Assembly: GCA_964585855.1 (NCBI GenBank)
Contig: CAZPFK010000003.1
Location: forward strand, 22,092-86,091
Direction: 5' to 3'
Length of the DNA: 64,000 bases
Source of the DNA: an uncultured Vicinamibacteraceae bacterium
Lineage (GTDB): Bacteria > Planctomycetota > Phycisphaerae > Phycisphaerales > UBA5793
The position numbers and the translations under genes are program-made. Shown here in pieces: positions 2 to 6,649 of the stretch. Numbering within the stretch: the stretch's first letter is position 1; each line of letters begins with the position of its first letter. The notes below the pieces were generated by a model, which saw only the letters and a program-made list of their open reading frames with translations, searched no databases and was not told where the DNA came from.

Positions 2-1216
2 ACCGATGCACTCAGCCACGCGACGCTGCCGGGGATCGCCCTTGCCTTCATTCTCGCAGCTGCGGTGGGAGTTGAGGGAAAGTCGACGTGGGTGCTGGTG
101 CTGGGGGCGCTGGTCACAGGCAGTCTCGGCATTCTCGTGGTGCAGGCGATTACGGCGACGACGCGCCTCAAGGAGGATGCCGCCCTGGGCATCGTGCTGA
201 GCGTCTTCTTCGGCCTCGGCGTCTCGCTGCTGAAGATCGCTGAATACATGCCCGGCGGAAGCGCAGCGGGGTTGAACAGCTTCATTCTCGGCCATGCCGC
301 GTCGATGATTGCGGCCGACCTGCGCGCCATAGTCTGGGTGAGCGTTGCCTCGCTGCTGCTGTGTGTTCTGCTGTTCAAGGAATGGCGGCTGCTGTGCTTC
401 GACAGCGAGTTTGCGCGCGTTCAGGGCTGGCCGGTGACGGCTCTGGATCTGGCGCTGATGGGCGTCATTGTCGCGCTGACGGTCGTCGGGCTGCGGGCCG
501 TCGGCCTGGTGCTGATCGTGGCGCTGCTGATCACGCCGGCCGTGGCCGCGCGATTCTGGACGCGGCGGCTGGCGCCGATGACCGCCGTGGCTGCATTGCT
601 TGGCGCGGTATGCGGCTACAGCGGAGCCGTCGCCAGCGCGCTGGCTCCGAGAATGCCCACCGGCCCGATCATCGTCATCATGTGCGGGGCGGCGCTTGGC
701 GTCAGTCTGATTGCAGGTGCGGAGTCGGGGCTGGCACGTCGGTGGCTTCACATCGTCGCAAACAGACGCCGGGTCGCCCAGCAGCATCTGCTGCGGGCGC
801 TGTACGAGGCCCACGAGATCGCAGGAGAGGCCGCTCCGCAACCGACGCCGCTGACGTCGCTGCTGGAGTTGCGCTCCTGGAGCCGGCGCGGGTTGCGGTC
901 GGCGATCCGCCGGGCGCAGCGCGAGGGCCTGGCGGTGTTGAACAGGGAGGACACGGTCACTCTGACGAAGGCGGGGTGGAGTGCTGCGGCGAGACTGGTG
1001 CGCAATCACCGGCTGTGGGAGCAGTATCTCGTCTCCTTTGCCGACATCGCGCCCTCGCATGTGGATCGCAACGCCGATGAGATCGAGCATGTGCTGGGTG
1101 CGGAGCTCACGGCCCGCCTCGAGGCGCTGCTGGCCGCCGACGGGAAGCGAGCGGCTCCTCCGCCCAGTCCGCACGCGCTGGCGACGGGAACCGGCAGTCA
1201 GGAGCAGGGGCGATGA
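2..1216 (+). CDS. Metal ABC transporter permease (ABC-3, MntB/ZnuB-like) fused to a C-terminal DtxR/MntR-like domain; 5' end off window
   Basis: The frame is open from nt 2 (TDALSHATLPGIALAF...), so the Met at 65 is internal. A multi-helix hydrophobic ABC-3 body is followed by a ~130-aa soluble tail with a DtxR-type signature (LTKAGWSAAARLVRNHRLWEQYL...ADEIEHVLGAEL). The stop overlaps the next start (ATGA, 1213-1216). Confidence 0.8.
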   Translation, partial: TDALSHATLPGIALAFILAAAVGVEGKSTWVLVLGALVTGSLGILVVQAITATTRLKEDAALGIVLSVFFGLGVSLLKIAEYMPGGSAAGLNSFILGHAASMIAADLRAIVWVSVASLLLCVLLFKEWRLLCFDSEFARVQGWPVTALDLALMGVIVALTVVGLRAVGLVLIVALLITPAVAARFWTRRLAPMTAVAALLGAVCGYSGAVASALAPRMPTGPIIVIMCGAALGVSLIAGAESGLARRWLHIVANRRRVAQQHLLRALYEAHEIAGEAAPQPTPLTSLLELRSWSRRGLRSAIRRAQREGLAVLNREDTVTLTKAGWSAAARLVRNHRLWEQYLVSFADIAPSHVDRNADEIEHVLGAELTARLEALLAADGKRAAPPPSPHALATGTGSQEQGR

Positions 1217-2541
1217 CCTGGCAGAGCGGCGATACCTGGATCGTGGTGACGGCGATTGCCGTGGCGCTTTCCTGTGCTGTGCCGGGAGCGCTGCTGGTGC
1301 TGCGGCGGATGAGCATGATGGGAGATGCGATCAGCCACACCGTGCTGCCGGGCATCGCCGTGGCCTTTCTGGTGACGCACAGCCGTGATCCGGGGGCGAT
1401 GTTTCTGGGGGCTGCAGCCGCCGGACTGCTGACGGCACTTCTGGTGCAGACGCTTCGCGAGGCGGGGCGCGTCGAGCCGGGGGCGGCCATCGGCGTGGTC
1501 TTCACCACGCTCTTTGCCGTCGGCATTATCCTGATCCGCCGCAGCGTCGATCTGGACCACGTTGACCTCGACCCCGATTGCGTGCTCTACGGGTCCATCG
1601 AGACCTCCGCGCAGGATCTTGTGTCGCTGGGTGGCCTCGGGGTGGAGCTTCCGCGTGCGGCCCTGATCAACTTCGGCATGTTCGCAATCAACGCCGTGAT
1701 CGTGCTGGCGTTGTTCAAGGAGTTCCGCGCCAGTTCGTTTGACCCGGAGTTTGCAACCTCGCAGGGGATTTCCTCACGGGCGATGCACTACCTGCTGATG
1801 GCGATGACCGCCGCCTCCGCCGTCGCCGCGTTCGAGTCCGTCGGTTCGATTCTTGTCGTCGCGATGATCGTCGTGCCCGCCGCGACGGCCGTCCTGCTGA
1901 CGCATCGTTTTGCAATGGTCTTTGTGCTCAGCGCGATCGCGGGAGTCATCGCTGCTGTTGCGGGCCATGTTGCGGCGATCGTCGTGCCGGGGTGGTTCGG
2001 ATTCGGCGAGACGGTGACCGCCGGCGGGATCGCCTCGGTCTCGGGGCTGCTCTTTGCGGTCGTCTGGATGCTGGCCCCCGGTGACGGGCTGCTGGCTCAG
2101 CACCGGCGTCGATTCCTGCTCGGGGTGCGGATTACGGCCGAAGACGTTCTGGGCCTTCTCTATCGCGTGGAGGAGTCGCCCTCGTCGGTGCCGGCTGGTG
2201 TGCCGGCCAATGATCTGCTTGGAGTCTCGCGGCTGCGGCTGGCGATGGCGCAGCGGTCGCTGCGACGCCGGGGACTCGTGGCAGCCGAAGCGGACGCGCC
2301 GCGCGGGCTGCGCCTGACGCCGATGGGCCGATCGGCGGCGAGCCGCCTGGTTCGCCAGCATCGTCTCTGGGAGACGTACCTGCACAACCGCGCCAATATC
2401 GCGCCTGATCACGTGCATGGAACGGCGATGCGCCTCGAACACGTCACGACGCCCGAGATGCTCGAACGGCTCGATGAGGTCACGGGCCGGCCCGGCGTCG
2501 ATCCGCACGGTCATCCGTTGCCGTCGAGCACGGACCATTAG
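1213..2541 (+). CDS. Second metal ABC transporter permease (ABC-3, MntD-like), also fused to a DtxR/MntR-like C-terminal domain
   Basis: 442-aa ORF. The hydrophobic permease body includes MMGDAISHTVLPGIA. The tail reads LTPMGRSAASRLVRQHRLWETYL...RLEHVTTPEMLERLDEVTGRPGVDPHGHPLP, which matches the DtxR dimerisation/metal-site region including DPHGHPxP. Confidence 0.8.
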   Translation: MTWQSGDTWIVVTAIAVALSCAVPGALLVLRRMSMMGDAISHTVLPGIAVAFLVTHSRDPGAMFLGAAAAGLLTALLVQTLREAGRVEPGAAIGVVFTTLFAVGIILIRRSVDLDHVDLDPDCVLYGSIETSAQDLVSLGGLGVELPRAALINFGMFAINAVIVLALFKEFRASSFDPEFATSQGISSRAMHYLLMAMTAASAVAAFESVGSILVVAMIVVPAATAVLLTHRFAMVFVLSAIAGVIAAVAGHVAAIVVPGWFGFGETVTAGGIASVSGLLFAVVWMLAPGDGLLAQHRRRFLLGVRITAEDVLGLLYRVEESPSSVPAGVPANDLLGVSRLRLAMAQRSLRRRGLVAAEADAPRGLRLTPMGRSAASRLVRQHRLWETYLHNRANIAPDHVHGTAMRLEHVTTPEMLERLDEVTGRPGVDPHGHPLPSSTDH

Positions 2542-3302
2542 TCGAGGTCAAAGGCGCGATTGTCCTGATCGCCGAACCACCCGATGCGGAACTCCGACAT
2601 CTCGGCCTCTGTGACGCCGTAGATGTTGCCGGCGGTGAAGGCGAAGGGCTCGCCCGAAGTATGTCCGTCAGCCCAGGCGATCGTCGCGAGGTCGCGGTGG
2701 CGGAAGTGCATCGTGGGATCCATGGAGGCGTCGGGCTGATCGGCGTGTCGGGGCGGCTCTGCGAAGCTGTATTCGATGAGGCGCAGCCCCGGATAGCGCA
2801 CCGCGAGGGCAGCGTCGGCGAACATGAGCGTCGCGAATGGAGCGGCGATGCGCGAGAGCGCGGCCCCGGCCCGGTCATCCCCGTCGGCGGAGACGCCAAG
2901 GTAGGCGTTGTTGTAGCCGTATCCGCCGCAGCCGCGCTCGAAGTCGGTCGGCTGGGGGTCGACGGCGGGAGACTCCGGGCAGGCGCGGACTCGTCCATCC
3001 TCGTTGAGGTAGGGCGAGAGCGGGCCGCCGTGGGCTTCGAAGGGTTCATAGACCGAGGCGCGGCTGCCGAACCAGCGATGGAGGTTGGCAAGAAAGTCAG
3101 ACGCGCCGGGGGCGAGCCGTCCGCGATGGTCGGCGGCGTAGGTGAGGTTGGCCAGTGAGAGATGCCGGATGTTCGAGGCGCACGTCGCCGCCCGCGCCCC
3201 GGCTCGAGCCGAGGAGAGCGCCGGCAGGAGCAGCCCGAGCAGCAGGGCGGTGATCGAGAGGACCACGAGGAGCTCGACGATGGTGAAGGCGCGCGGTTTC
3301 AT
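2538..3302 (-). CDS. Type IV pilin-like (prepilin N-terminal methylation motif) DUF1559 / H-X9-DG protein
   Basis: Starting at the Met at 3302 gives MKPRAFTIVELLVVLSITALLLGLLLPAL, a class III signal/methylation motif. The C-terminus has HRDLATIAWADGH (H-X9-DG). ATGA overlap with the upstream gene at 3299-3302. The ORF-track start at 3326 is an alternative. Confidence 0.8.
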   Translation of the reverse strand: MKPRAFTIVELLVVLSITALLLGLLLPALSSARAGARAATCASNIRHLSLANLTYAADHRGRLAPGASDFLANLHRWFGSRASVYEPFEAHGGPLSPYLNEDGRVRACPESPAVDPQPTDFERGCGGYGYNNAYLGVSADGDDRAGAALSRIAAPFATLMFADAALAVRYPGLRLIEYSFAEPPRHADQPDASMDPTMHFRHRDLATIAWADGHTSGEPFAFTAGNIYGVTEAEMSEFRIGWFGDQDNRAFDLD

Positions 3303-4267
3303 CGTTGGACTCCGCAGATTATCCACGGGCCGGGAGCGCCCGGAAGCGTCAGCGGGGCGAAGATGGGCGTAAGCGCCGGGCCGACAATCGCCACGCCGCC
3401 GATTTCCGCAGAGACTTCGCCGAGTTCGCCTGAGTCGGCATCGACGGCCGTTGTGATGCGAATGAAGTCGAAGCCGCGCAGACCGGCGGGCGCGCCGGTT
3501 GCGGGGTCGATGGCCCAGGCGATGTCGAAGCCGTCGCCGCCGCCGCTGCCGGGAGTGATGCCGACTTCAAAGGGATCATCGGGCAGGGTGTAGAAGCGAT
3601 CCGGCGTGATGGCGGCGTCATCGATGAGGTTGTCGCCGTCAAGATCGCCGAGGCGCAGAACGGGCGTTGCGTCGGCGTAACCGAAGACCTCCTCCTCGTT
3701 CGGGTCGGAGTTGAACAGGGGCGGTGAAGCGAAGGGGATCTCGGGCAGGATGAAGTGGCCGTCGCGCTGCTGGCTGCCGGCGTCGTGAATGTGCGAACCG
3801 GGAATGAGGTACCAGGGATCGTCGGCAAGCCCGTTGTCGTTGACATCCAGGGCGATCTCGATGACGGCCGCCTCGGCAAATCGGCGCTGGGGGTCGCCGC
3901 CCGGCCAGAAGGCGTTGCCGAAGACGATGCAGTCGATGCCGAAGGGGTTGCGCGGATCATCCATGGCGCGGCGGGCGAAGCCGAGGGTGATCGAGCCGCC
4001 GAAACCGCCGAGGGTGACAACCTTGGAGTTGTCGGCAAAGAGCGTGCCACCGCCGATCGGCGCGCCAAGCGCGCGAGCCGGATCGTTGAATTGCGGATCG
4101 TTGACAAACTGTCCGTCGGCCGGGGCGTACTCCAGCACGCGGACGGCAAAGGGTGAGGCGAGAGGCGGCGGATCGTCGGCCGAGCCGCTGCGGAGCGACT
4201 GCCCCGACGCTGAAGCGGTTGCGCTGAGAATGGCGACGATGAAAGTTGGGCCGATGGAGACTCTCAT
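3299..4267 (-). CDS. Secreted protein of unknown function with Asp-rich (Ca-binding-like) loops
   Basis: The N-terminus MRVSIGPTFIVAILSATASASGQS looks like a signal peptide. It contains DVNDNGLADD and GDLDGDNLIDD loops. It is translationally coupled on both sides (4-nt overlaps). I recognise no family. Confidence 0.6.
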   Translation of the reverse strand: MRVSIGPTFIVAILSATASASGQSLRSGSADDPPPLASPFAVRVLEYAPADGQFVNDPQFNDPARALGAPIGGGTLFADNSKVVTLGGFGGSITLGFARRAMDDPRNPFGIDCIVFGNAFWPGGDPQRRFAEAAVIEIALDVNDNGLADDPWYLIPGSHIHDAGSQQRDGHFILPEIPFASPPLFNSDPNEEEVFGYADATPVLRLGDLDGDNLIDDAAITPDRFYTLPDDPFEVGITPGSGGGDGFDIAWAIDPATGAPAGLRGFDFIRITTAVDADSGELGEVSAEIGGVAIVGPALTPIFAPLTLPGAPGPWIICGVQR

Positions 4268-5286
4268 GGCTGCGCTCCGATTGAGGGCAGGCGGCCGGAT
4301 CGGCCCGTCTCCTCGAAGAGCAGCACGGCTGATGCCGCATCTCCCTGCACAAGAAAGGCGCCGTCGAGAGGGCTGAAGCGGGCCGTGTAGAGACTGGTGT
4401 CGCCGCCCTGCGGGTTTCGGCGGAAGATGTCGCGCGGATCAACCGGGCCATGACCGGCCATGGTGTCTGCAATCCCGTCACGGTGGAGGATGGCGAAGTA
4501 GCCGTAGTCGCCGGATCCTCCGAAGAGGTCGCCGCCGCCGACGAAGAGGTTTCCGAGATCGTCGAAGTCGAGGGGCGATGCAGTCAGCAGGTCGGCGACG
4601 AGGAGGCCTTCGGAGGCGAAGTCGATTGCGGGCTGAACGCCGTCGAGGACGTCGAGGATGCGGTCGGCGGCGAAGACGCGGATTTCACCGGTTTCCGAAC
4701 CGCCGGTGGCGAGGTCGAAGCCGTTGGCGGTAAAGAGGTTGCCGTTGTCGTCGAAGGCGATGCCTCCAGAGGCGCCGTCGATGGAGAGGATCACCGTGGC
4801 TTCGCCGGTGATGGTGTCGAGCCAGGCGACCTCGCCGAAGAACGTTGAGAGGTTGGCGTAGGTGACGGCCAGATGGGAGTCGGAGACCCAGGCGGCGTCG
4901 AAGTTCTCCTGCAGGAATCGAGTGACGGGCACTTCGCTGCCGAGGAGATCGACGACATCGAAGGTGGAGACCCAGGCACCGCCGAAGTTGTTGTCGCCGA
5001 CGGCAACAGTTGAGCCGGAGGGATTAATGCGCACAAACGATGCGCCCCAGGGGGCGACGGTTCCTTCCGGCAGCGTGCCGGCCAGGTCGAAGACGCCGCT
5101 GCCGGGTGACGTTTCGAGAAGCACCTCGGTGACGTTGACGGCCAGCATCCGGCCGTCGGGCAGGATGTCCCAGGGGGCATCGGGGCCCGGCCGGGCGTCG
5201 ATGCGGAGGAAGGGCGGGGCCGCGAGAGCGGATGCGGCGGGAAATGCACAACAGATCAGGGCGGGAACGCAACGAACCTTGGGCAT
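4264..5286 (-). CDS. Secreted beta-propeller-like protein; first gene downstream of the cobalamin riboswitch
   Basis: The internal Met at 5286 (residue 59 of the 398-aa ORF) gives MPKVRCVPALICCAFPAASALAAPP, a signal peptide, and GGAAAGGA lies 8 nt upstream. Repeated strand-rich segments such as GIAFDDNGNLFTANGF are typical of propeller blades. The upstream part of the ORF overlaps the riboswitch platform and is not credible as coding. Confidence 0.65.
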   Translation of the reverse strand: MPKVRCVPALICCAFPAASALAAPPFLRIDARPGPDAPWDILPDGRMLAVNVTEVLLETSPGSGVFDLAGTLPEGTVAPWGASFVRINPSGSTVAVGDNNFGGAWVSTFDVVDLLGSEVPVTRFLQENFDAAWVSDSHLAVTYANLSTFFGEVAWLDTITGEATVILSIDGASGGIAFDDNGNLFTANGFDLATGGSETGEIRVFAADRILDVLDGVQPAIDFASEGLLVADLLTASPLDFDDLGNLFVGGGDLFGGSGDYGYFAILHRDGIADTMAGHGPVDPRDIFRRNPQGGDTSLYTARFSPLDGAFLVQGDAASAVLLFEETGRSGRLPSIGAQP

Positions 5287-5497
5287 GGGAGCAATCCTTT
5301 CCACGGGCCGGCTCCGAAATCGCGGGAGCCGGCGGCGTTTCGGCGTCATTGGCGAAAGCCGATGACACGGGAATCGGAAACCGACCGCCGATTGCGGAAA
5401 GGATTGGATTCGGGAGTTCGAGTTCAGCAGGGCGCTGCGCGCGTGCCGGCGACGAAGCAATCCCGTTTCCGTCCCGATCCGCGAGGACGGTCACGAC

Positions 5498-5690
5498 AAG
5501 TTCGTTGACGGCAGGTCTTCCGGCTTGGGGCCTCTGACTCCGGCCTTCCCATTCGAGGTGCTTCGAACAGTGGCTACCCGGCAGTCAGTGCAACGACTGT
5601 GGTGCGTTGCGGCCCGTTACGGCGGCGCGTCCGCGGTGGCTTCTCACCACGCTTCCCTTTTCAGTCTGCGACCGAAGCCGAGACACTCTC
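5498..5690 (-). promoter_or_regulatory. Cobalamin (B12) riboswitch
   Basis: The minus strand reads, in order: AAAAGGGAAGCGTGGTGAGAAGCCAC (GGGAA plus a GTGG/CCAC hairpin with an AA loop), CGCCGCCGTAA, a GCAACG/CGTTGC hairpin, GCCACTG-[TTCGA..TCGAA hairpin]-GGGAAGGC, then the B12 box AAGCCGGAAGACCTGCCGTCA (plus-strand coordinates 5506-5526). Order and spacing match the known cobalamin riboswitch core. The ends are approximate. Confidence 0.85.
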
Positions 5691-5721
5691 GGATTCGGGA
5701 ACAGACACCGGCAACGCCGCC

Positions 5722-5751
5722 ACTGTAGCGGCGCATCGGTGCGGGTGTCAA
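5722..5751 (-). promoter_or_regulatory. Sigma70-type promoter for the riboswitch-led operon
   Basis: The minus strand has TTGACA (5751-5746), an 18-nt spacer and TACAGT (5727-5722), just upstream of the riboswitch 5' end. Confidence 0.5.
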
Positions 5752-5787
5752 CGCCTGACGGGAAGGATTGGCGGAAAGAAAGGAGAT

Positions 5788-5813
5788 CGACCCGGCAGGG
5801 GGCTGCCGGGTCG
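5788..5813 (-). terminator. Stem-loop downstream of tsf (putative intrinsic terminator)
   Basis: Perfect 11-bp stem CGACCCGGCAG/CTGCCGGGTCG with a GGGG loop, 30 nt after the tsf stop. On the minus strand it is followed by ATCTCCTTTCTTTCC, which is pyrimidine/T-rich but not a clean U-tract. Confidence 0.5.
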
Positions 5814-5842
5814 AGGGGATGGATCGGTATGGAGGTTGTGAA

Positions 5843-6649
5843 TCAGACGCCGACGAGCCAGCGATCGAAGGCGAGCACCTTCACGCCCGAGGGCAGGATG
5901 CTGCCGACGGTCTTCTTGCCTTCCGGATCCTTCACGTAGATCTGGTTGACCAGGGTATTTTCCGCGATGAACTTGCGCACCTTGCCCTCCACCATCTTTT
6001 CGATGATGTTGGCGGGCTTGCCGGACTCGGCGGCCTCGGCCTCGGCGTCCGACCGGGCGCGGGTGAGCAGATCGGGGGCGATCCCGGACTCATCGGGTGC
6101 AAGCGGCGTCGGGACGTGGGCCAGCACATGCTGGGCAACGCCCAGGGCCGCATCCTTCTCAACCGGACCGCTGAAGGCGACGACGGCGGCCTTCTGCTCA
6201 TCGTGGTGCAGGTAGGCGGCGACATACGGGGCGGCGACCTTGAGGCCGCGCCGGTAGGAGATGTTCTCGCCGGTCGTGATGCGCAGTTCGTCGATCAGCG
6301 CGGTGATTTCGGCCGTTGCGGCGACCTGCCCGGCCGGGGCGGCGAAGGCGATCTCGGCGATTTTTGCGGCGGCGGCGCGGGTGGCGTCGTTGCGGGCTGT
6401 GAAGTCGGTTTCGGTGTTGATTTCGATGATGGCGACGGCGGAGGCATCGGGAGCGACCTTGACTGACAGCAGCCCCTGGGCGGCGGCGCGATCAGTCCGG
6501 GCGTCCATTTTTCCCTTGAGGCGGGTGCGGAGCAGTTCGATCGCGGCGTCCATGTCGCCGTTGGTCTCGGTGAGGGCCTGCTTGCAGTCCATCATTCCCA
6601 GACCCGTCTTCTGACGCAGGGTCATCACGTCCTTGGCGCTGATTGACAT
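5843..6649 (-). CDS. tsf: Translation elongation factor Ts
   Basis: The N-terminus MSISAKDVMTLRQKTGLGMMDCKQALTETNGDMDAAIELLR is the conserved EF-Ts UBA-like motif (TGAGMMDCKKAL). It lies downstream of rpsB, as is usual. Confidence 0.95.
   Translation of the reverse strand: MSISAKDVMTLRQKTGLGMMDCKQALTETNGDMDAAIELLRTRLKGKMDARTDRAAAQGLLSVKVAPDASAVAIIEINTETDFTARNDATRAAAAKIAEIAFAAPAGQVAATAEITALIDELRITTGENISYRRGLKVAAPYVAAYLHHDEQKAAVVAFSGPVEKDAALGVAQHVLAHVPTPLAPDESGIAPDLLTRARSDAEAEAAESGKPANIIEKMVEGKVRKFIAENTLVNQIYVKDPEGKKTVGSILPSGVKVLAFDRWLVGV

Follow-up and report, generated by a model that had tools for sequence, protein, structure and literature searches.

A cobalamin riboswitch cassette that pairs a BtuH-like protein with a pilin-like protein in Planctomycetota: a candidate corrinoid capture module

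We analysed a 64,000-nucleotide stretch of DNA (hereafter the window) from contig CAZPFK010000003.1, which derives from an uncultured member of the Phycisphaerales. Its minus strand carries a cobalamin riboswitch followed by three open reading frames (ORFs), here called g1, g2 and g3, which encode an exported beta-propeller, an exported protein with a BtuH-like B12-binding domain and a type IV pilin-like protein (Table 1). The ORFs are coupled by ATGA stop/start overlaps at 4267-4264 and 3302-3299. When a near-identical public contig was run through an independent gene caller, the products had the lengths listed in Table 1, and we therefore place the start of g1 at the ATG at 5286 and not at the TTG at 5460. 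Sec-type signal peptides were recognized by inspection in g1 and g2, and g3 has a prepilin-type N-terminus matched by PF07963. An earlier note on this DNA, made from the sequence alone, had described the core elements of a cobalamin riboswitch, a promoter-like site ahead of it, three genes joined by ATGA overlaps behind it and export signals on all three products, and each of these observations was borne out. The evidence presented here is computational throughout.

Table 1. Features of the riboswitch cassette, in order of transcription (window coordinates)
Feature	Position	Strand	Basis
Terminator-like hairpin closing upstream tsf	5787..5814	-	12-bp stem with 9 GC pairs, then T-rich tail
Sigma-70-like promoter, TTGACA-18-TACAGT	5722..5751	-	10/12 positions match
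Cobalamin riboswitch aptamer including B12 box	5493..5722	-	Rfam RF00174 match
Expression platform / 5' untranslated region	5287..5492	-	Shine-Dalgarno-complementary segment in leader
g1, exported six-bladed beta-propeller, 340 aa	4264..5286	-	AlphaFold2 model
g2, exported BtuH-like B12-binding-domain protein, 322 aa	3299..4267	-	Homology to BtuG1 H-domain and BtuH2
g3, type IV pilin/pseudopilin-like protein with H-X9-DG motif, 254 aa	2538..3302	-	PF07963 and model

The search with the Rfam cobalamin riboswitch model that had been proposed earlier gave a significant result: RF00174 matched over its full length (model positions 1-189) with 75.4 bits (E 8.8e-17; gathering score, 31.5), and this was the sole Rfam match across the window. 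The core motifs are all present, namely GGGAA.., GCCACTG..GGGAAGGC and the B12 box AAGCCGGAAGACCTGCC. The promoter-like site is the single one found within 2300-6000, compared to a mean of 0.3 in shuffled sequence. Upstream of it, the terminator-like hairpin marks the 5' boundary of the riboswitch-operon unit; the gene that it closes, tsf, occupies 5843-6649, and the same gene on the near-identical public contig has an EF_TS match. In the leader, AAUCCUUUCC (5405-5396) is the exact complement of the Shine-Dalgarno region GGAAAGGAUU (5302-5293), which stops 6 nucleotides short of the g1 start codon, and the two segments are paired in the minimum-free-energy fold of the leader (-99.9 kcal/mol, z -2.7). 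A search from the aptamer to the g1 start found no terminator-like site, and transcription attenuation via a classic intrinsic terminator is unlikely for that reason. As judged from this one leader, control of g1 appears to be translational, by sequestration of its ribosome-binding site.

Of the three products, g2 has no match in Pfam and only a weak match in NCBIfam. The earlier note had concluded that the operon encodes proteins with no known B12 function, none of which resembles a known B12 protein. For g2, both statements are incorrect. A profile of the g2 family (22 members) matched two chains in the PDB, 8BLW_B at residues 389-521 and 612-658 (E 1e-31) and 7BIZ_A (E 1e-24); with the single window sequence as the query, the E-values were 8.5e-20 and 1.8e-15, respectively. 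7BIZ is BtuH2 of Bacteroides thetaiotaomicron, crystallized with B12 (PMC8941943). 8BLW comes from work on BtuB1-BtuG1, in which BtuG1 was described as a propeller that is extended at its C-terminus by about 250 residues with homology to BtuH2 (PMC10404256), and it is this extension that the g2 profile matches. In BtuH2, Gln333, Asn399, Glu406, Asp522, Ser582 and Glu584 hold the nucleotide loop of B12 and a Na/Ca site (PMC8941943, PMC13616437). Gln333, Asn399, Glu406, Ser582 and Glu584 align with Q53, N118, E132, S286 and E288 of g2, positions that vary little or not at all within the g2 family, and Asp522 lies just outside the aligned blocks. Phe334 and Phe401 of BtuH2 are likewise aligned with phenylalanines. 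The Asp loops that had been likened to those of dockerins or EF-hands are present, but they are the BtuH domain's own calcium-type loop, DxNxNGxxDDxWY, which is common to BtuH2 and BtuG1. These alignments identify g2 as a homologue of the BtuH domain with a conserved phosphate/metal site, and suggest that it would bind a corrinoid outside the cytoplasm through a BtuH-type pocket.

The resemblance of g2 to the BtuH family (BtuH1, BtuH2 and the H-domain of BtuG1/BtuGH) spans both halves of the domain of about 270 amino acids. It extends to the genetic setting: in both cases, there is a B12 riboswitch upstream, the protein is exported, and a propeller is adjacent or sometimes fused, as it is in BtuG1. 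The differences are also considerable. BtuH has been reported in gut Bacteroidota and three Firmicutes (PMC8941943, PMC13616437), whereas g2 belongs to a member of the Planctomycetota. g2 has neither a lipobox nor PKD domains, and its signal peptide does not contain the cysteine that would mark a lipoprotein. Its locus does not contain btuB, btuFCD or btuG, and its constant partner is a pilin-like gene.

The AlphaFold2 model of g1 (predicted local distance difference test, pLDDT, 90.3) has 24 strands, which we read as six four-stranded blades, in agreement with the propeller-like first product described earlier. The note had also drawn an analogy with BtuG, the surface lipoprotein that caps BtuB. 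g1 shares with BtuG its export, its propeller fold, its place as the first gene of a B12-riboswitch operon and the adjacent or fused BtuH-type domain. As a statement of family membership, the analogy failed. BtuG2 is seven-bladed (PMC10404256), and g1 has no Pfam match to PF16819 (BtuG) at E<=1, its profile does not match the BtuG1 chain 8BLW_B at E<=10, and its top 50 Foldseek matches are generic propellers only (WD40 and SMP-30/paraoxonase/strictosidine-synthase types), with no BtuG entry among them. g1 is also not a lipoprotein and does not have a BtuB partner. We therefore rejected g1 as a member of the BtuG family. Many of the 47 homologues of g1 that were found carry PEP-CTERM-like tails. 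In two loci (L033 and L069) g1 is fused to g2, and the propeller runs straight into the BtuH-like domain with no signal peptide between them; this is the architecture of B. thetaiotaomicron BtuG1 (PMC10404256). g1 is probably either a second B12 binder or a docking partner for g2, because a DUF4465 protein shares its slot in sister operons, as described below.

The N-terminus of g3 is that of a prepilin. It matches the N_methyl family PF07963 (21.9 bits, cut-off 21.2) as well as GspG, ComGC and TIGR02532 models, and it contains a class III signal with glutamate at position +5 (PRA/FTIVELL). The AlphaFold2 model (pLDDT 90.2) consists of a helix at residues 8-58 and a globular head. A profile of g3 matches solved pilins (geopilin, PilA, GspG) in the N-terminal helix only. 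Thus, g3 shares the class III signal, Glu+5, long helix and globular head with type II secretion system (T2SS) pseudopilins, type IV pilins and the competence pseudopilus, which functions in DNA uptake.

The description of g3 as a DUF1559/H-X9-DG protein held in part. The H-X9-DG motif (H202-RDLATIAWA-D212-G213) is present and is invariant in 37 aligned sequences, and the overall layout is that of the DUF1559 (PF07596)/H-X9-DG prepilin-type proteins of Planctomycetota and their relatives. The match to PF07596 itself falls below threshold (12.8 bits, cut-off 23.3) and covers residues 39-69 only, and TIGR04294 (H-X9-DG) has no match at E<=1; some g3 orthologues do have precomputed PF07596 matches. 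At E<=1e-10 the g3 profile retrieves 188,522 cluster representatives, a number that drops to 624 at E<=1e-30, and we therefore regard g3 as a small, sharply bounded subfamily within a huge pilin/DUF1559 superfamily. This subfamily of about 624 clusters differs from DUF1559 proteins at large in its specific genomic context.

To survey that context in genomes, a scan anchored on g2 and limited to one genome per species yielded 80 loci, nearly all labelled Phycisphaerae or Planctomycetota. g3 follows g2 in 78 of the 80 and g1 precedes g2 in 72. In five loci (L038, L040, L054, L070 and L079), a DUF4465 protein is the first gene in place of the propeller. A strict motif search (GCCACTG ... GAAGACCTGCC) found the riboswitch in 52/80 genome loci and 4/40 metagenome loci. 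It proved too insensitive, and Rfam was therefore used; of 14 genome loci that were re-tested after a motif match only, 13 reach the threshold. RF00174 is present upstream at the gathering threshold in 44 of the 50 genome loci tested, and its matches in orthologous loci are on the same strand throughout. Two more loci have core motifs only (L010, with 28.1 bits, and L014, with no Rfam score). These probably fall below the Rfam threshold owing to large insertions. The core motif is also present in 28 loci outside the Rfam-tested set, the contig ends just upstream in five, and one locus, L058, has g1-g2-g3 without a riboswitch. Altogether, 74/80 genome loci have some riboswitch evidence, whether Rfam-level, motif or sub-threshold, and the riboswitch-gene linkage that the note had proposed to look for in relatives was thus found. 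The flanking genes vary by lineage (rpoBC, for example, in 21 loci) and are not conserved, which argues that the cassette is self-contained.

A second scan, of metagenomes and anchored on the g3 profile, yielded 80 loci with GC contents of 0.43-0.72, only some of which have window-like g1 and g2 genes upstream of g3. RF00174 was found upstream and on the same strand in 16/16 tested loci without a window-like g2 upstream and in 16/17 further loci, that is, in 32/33 tested metagenome loci; the exception, L128, keeps the core motif. Layouts of all metagenome loci were assigned by tblastn. Nine complete loci have the order propeller, BtuH-like, pilin; five (L093, L102, L109, L132 and L137) have DUF4465, BtuH-like, pilin; about 35 have a fusion of DUF4465 to a distant BtuH-like domain, followed by the pilin; and in two, the riboswitch is followed by the pilin and then the BtuH-like gene. 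The commonest alternative layout is exemplified by the gene between the riboswitch and the g3 counterpart at L110:2725-4461. This gene encodes a DUF4465 domain (Pfam E 2.5e-51; E 1e-25 to 1e-20 against solved DUF4465 B12 binders) and a C-terminal domain that the g2 profile matches distantly (hhalign probability 95%, E 1.9e-8), together with a dockerin-like tail. A binder-type gene (BtuH-like, DUF4465 or both) adjoins g3 in every metagenome locus with enough upstream DNA. In the 43 metagenome loci longer than 5 kb whose ORFs were clustered, conservation extended to no additional gene.

In several long predicted proteins (P0288, P0320, P0328, P0331 and P0404), a BtuH-like binder is joined without a stop codon to a g3-type prepilin leader, and a PEP-CTERM-like tail directly precedes that leader. 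Either separate genes were merged when they were called, or the fusions are real and prepilin peptidase would cut them apart; in view of the first possibility, we have set these proteins aside as evidence of fusion.

The BtuJ/DUF4465 beta-jellyroll B12 binders (9FCT, 9HMU, 9QPM) thus replace g1 or are fused to the BtuH-like domain in sister operons that have the same riboswitch and the same pilin-like gene, although DUF4465 itself is absent from the window. DUF4465 is widely distributed, and the neighbours described for it are TonB-dependent transporters, propellers and binding proteins, with no pilin-like partner listed (PMC13398666). By sequence, the core that is kept across lineages is the riboswitch, a BtuH-like domain and the pilin-like g3, without a co-encoded BtuB. 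Every layout found links the g3 subfamily to a B12 riboswitch and to genes of the B12-binder type, which strengthens the earlier suggestion that the operon would provide a functional handle on a DUF1559-type protein. One could suppose that the riboswitch adjoins these genes by chance or that the RNA regulates something else. The conservation data already contradict this: the same order and strand recur in 74/80 genome loci and 32/33 tested metagenome loci, in spite of four different gene architectures and differing flanks, and we find the explanation scarcely credible.

We consider it probable, though with real reservations, that B12 represses the cassette and that its products scavenge corrinoids outside the cytoplasm, with the pilin-like g3 coupling the BtuH-like binder to the cell envelope. 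The capture module proposed in the earlier note fits the riboswitch, the conserved linkage and the homology of g2 to BtuH. Such a module is of a known kind; its pilin-like partner is new, and the way in which that partner works can only be proposed here. The cassette points to an undescribed, pilin-linked route of B12 acquisition. In the literature searched, we found no link of pilins or DUF1559 to cobalamin, none of pilins to the uptake of vitamins, none of BtuH or DUF4465 to pilin-like proteins, no report of BtuH in Planctomycetota and no assigned function for DUF1559.

The operon would be turned on by B12 shortage. When intracellular cobalamin is low, the riboswitch would leave the ribosome-binding site of g1 accessible and the three translationally coupled genes would be made; in the ligand-bound state, that site is most likely masked by a CUUUCC segment farther upstream. 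Exported g2 would then capture a corrinoid through its BtuH-type pocket, a step for which the homology and the phosphate/metal-site residues provide the grounds. g1 would work physically with g2; in sister operons, its slot is filled by a proven B12-binding fold, DUF4465/BtuJ. After cleavage by prepilin peptidase, g3 may be inserted in a pseudopilus resembling those of type II secretion or type IV pili, where it would be the subunit specific to this module, holding the BtuH-like binder at the envelope and passing the vitamin inward. T2SS tip pseudopilins and DNA-binding competence pilins are precedents for a cargo-specific pilin subunit.

Several observations weigh against this interpretation. 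The corrin contacts of BtuH2 are harder to trace in g2: Trp577 aligns with glutamate, in a column that is variable in the g2 family, and the stretch that holds His476, Tyr510 and Trp511 could not be aligned and is shorter in g2. g1 has no detectable similarity to BtuG by Pfam, profile or the top 50 Foldseek matches. Foldseek found no solved structural relative of the g3 head, in which g3 is unlike known pilins. Clustering of ORFs from the 80 genome loci and 43 metagenome loci longer than 5 kb revealed no conserved transporter, TonB-dependent receptor, BtuB or pilus-assembly gene; pilus/T2SS assembly genes and transporters are linked to the cassette in none of the clustered loci, and the coupling role of g3 is therefore argued from context. 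That g1, g2 or g3 binds B12 is a prediction from computation. The helix that would sequester the Shine-Dalgarno region is likewise predicted from a single sequence: the leader of a relative, L005, folds with similar CUUUC/GAAAG pairing, yet no better than its shuffles, and sequestration remains a suggestion because that fold is not statistically distinctive. Finally, the 6 kb upstream of the genes in L058 (JADJMV010000017.1, 1-7000) contains no cobalamin riboswitch even at E<=0.01. L058 represents a lineage that may have lost B12 control.

Alternatively to the coupling of capture to uptake, g3 could be a cargo-specific pseudopilin that recruits the B12 binders to the T2SS for export to the surface, with B12 entering via an unlinked BtuB-type or other transporter. 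Minor pseudopilins of the T2SS contact secreted substrates. g1 and g2, having Sec signals, need a route over the outer membrane, all architectures have in common a BtuH-like domain that g3 could recognize, and the cassette does not include an uptake component. We nevertheless hold this explanation to be somewhat unlikely, since relatives of g1 and g2 have sorting or anchoring signals of their own, such as PEP-CTERM-like tails, dockerin repeats and some lipobox-like N-termini, and the presence of BtuB in these genomes is a presumption.

A different role for g3 is suggested by its head, which is large (about 195 amino acids) and highly conserved, with invariant motifs rich in aromatic residues and histidine (GGYGYN, EYSF, HFRH, W-DGH). 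g3 might stand outside any filament and use its pilin-type helix only to hold a periplasmic B12-binding head at the inner membrane, feeding an ATP-binding cassette (ABC) importer in the manner of BtuF. The pairing of g3 with differing binder classes would agree with this, as the shared factor could be the ligand. Yet g3 conserves Glu+5 and a complete class III signal, as do pilins that assemble, H-X9-DG is common to thousands of paralogues that have no B12 link, and none of the clustered flanks has a linked ABC importer. We regard a BtuF-like g3 as distinctly unlikely.

The module could also withhold or store B12 extracellularly, in competition or as a reservoir, and not feed import at all. 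BtuJ-type proteins of Bacteroides are discussed as extracellular reservoirs (10.1101/2025.07.01.662609; PMC13616437), and g1 and g2 of the window have no obvious anchors. Repression by B12 is what one expects of an acquisition system, however, and storage would leave unexplained the constant pairing with g3, a subunit of an envelope machine; this possibility seems to us very unlikely.

If capture is indeed coupled to an envelope machine through g3, the cassette would represent a new principle of micronutrient uptake, and it would serve usefully to flag B12 auxotrophy or scavenging in metagenomes of marine and sediment origin. The analysis extends the BtuH and BtuJ families from gut Bacteroidota to environmental Planctomycetota, where they occur in a compact riboswitch-controlled cassette without BtuB, and for one member of the very large DUF1559/H-X9-DG family it offers a functional assignment that is, for the first time, specific and testable. 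A broader speculation is that Planctomycetota draw B12 across the outer membrane by means of a pseudopilus, instead of or alongside TonB-dependent BtuB, with a BtuH/BtuJ-type binder docking on the H-X9-DG pilin-like subunit, and that the hundreds of DUF1559/H-X9-DG paralogues are adaptors for the uptake of specific ligands. We consider this speculation as a whole unlikely.

Some further observations concern the loci surveyed. The locus L002 (WYBR01000011.1), labelled as the isolate 'PLA1' of the Vicinamibacteraceae (Acidobacteriota), has the same cassette in a layout nearly identical to that of the Phycisphaerae locus L001, and its g2 is 68% identical to that of the window; the label of this record is probably wrong, or the sequence was mis-binned. 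A small cysteine-rich ORF resembling a BFD-like [2Fe-2S] domain lies 3' of g3 on the same strand in 19 genome loci (for example, L026 8854-9186 (+)), with rpoC/rpoB farther on in the opposite orientation; the window has no such ORF. Acido-Lenti-1 RNAs (RF01687) were found a few kb from the cassette in L031 (9526-9571 and 9713-9758 (-)) and L097 (6062-6107 (+)). Among the loci in which the riboswitch is followed by the pilin and then the BtuH-like gene, L148 has a selenocysteine tRNA (RF01852, 71 bits) at 2903-2995 (+), about 1 kb upstream of the riboswitch.

Within the window, no further B12-related or pilin-like genes were found, g3 being the sole ORF with a prepilin-type N-terminal motif, and positions 1-64000 contain no tRNA genes. 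The other annotated genes are housekeeping genes, such as tsf, rpsB, gyrA and those for 2-oxoglutarate dehydrogenase and trigger factor. On the far side of g3 are two adjacent genes at 65-1216 (+) and 1213-2541 (+), which encode ABC-3 (PF00950) metal-transporter permeases, each with a C-terminal DtxR-type Fe_dep_repr_C domain (PF02742). The second of these converges on g3, the stop codons overlapping at 2538-2541, and the fusion of a PF00950 permease to a PF02742 regulator domain is unusual.

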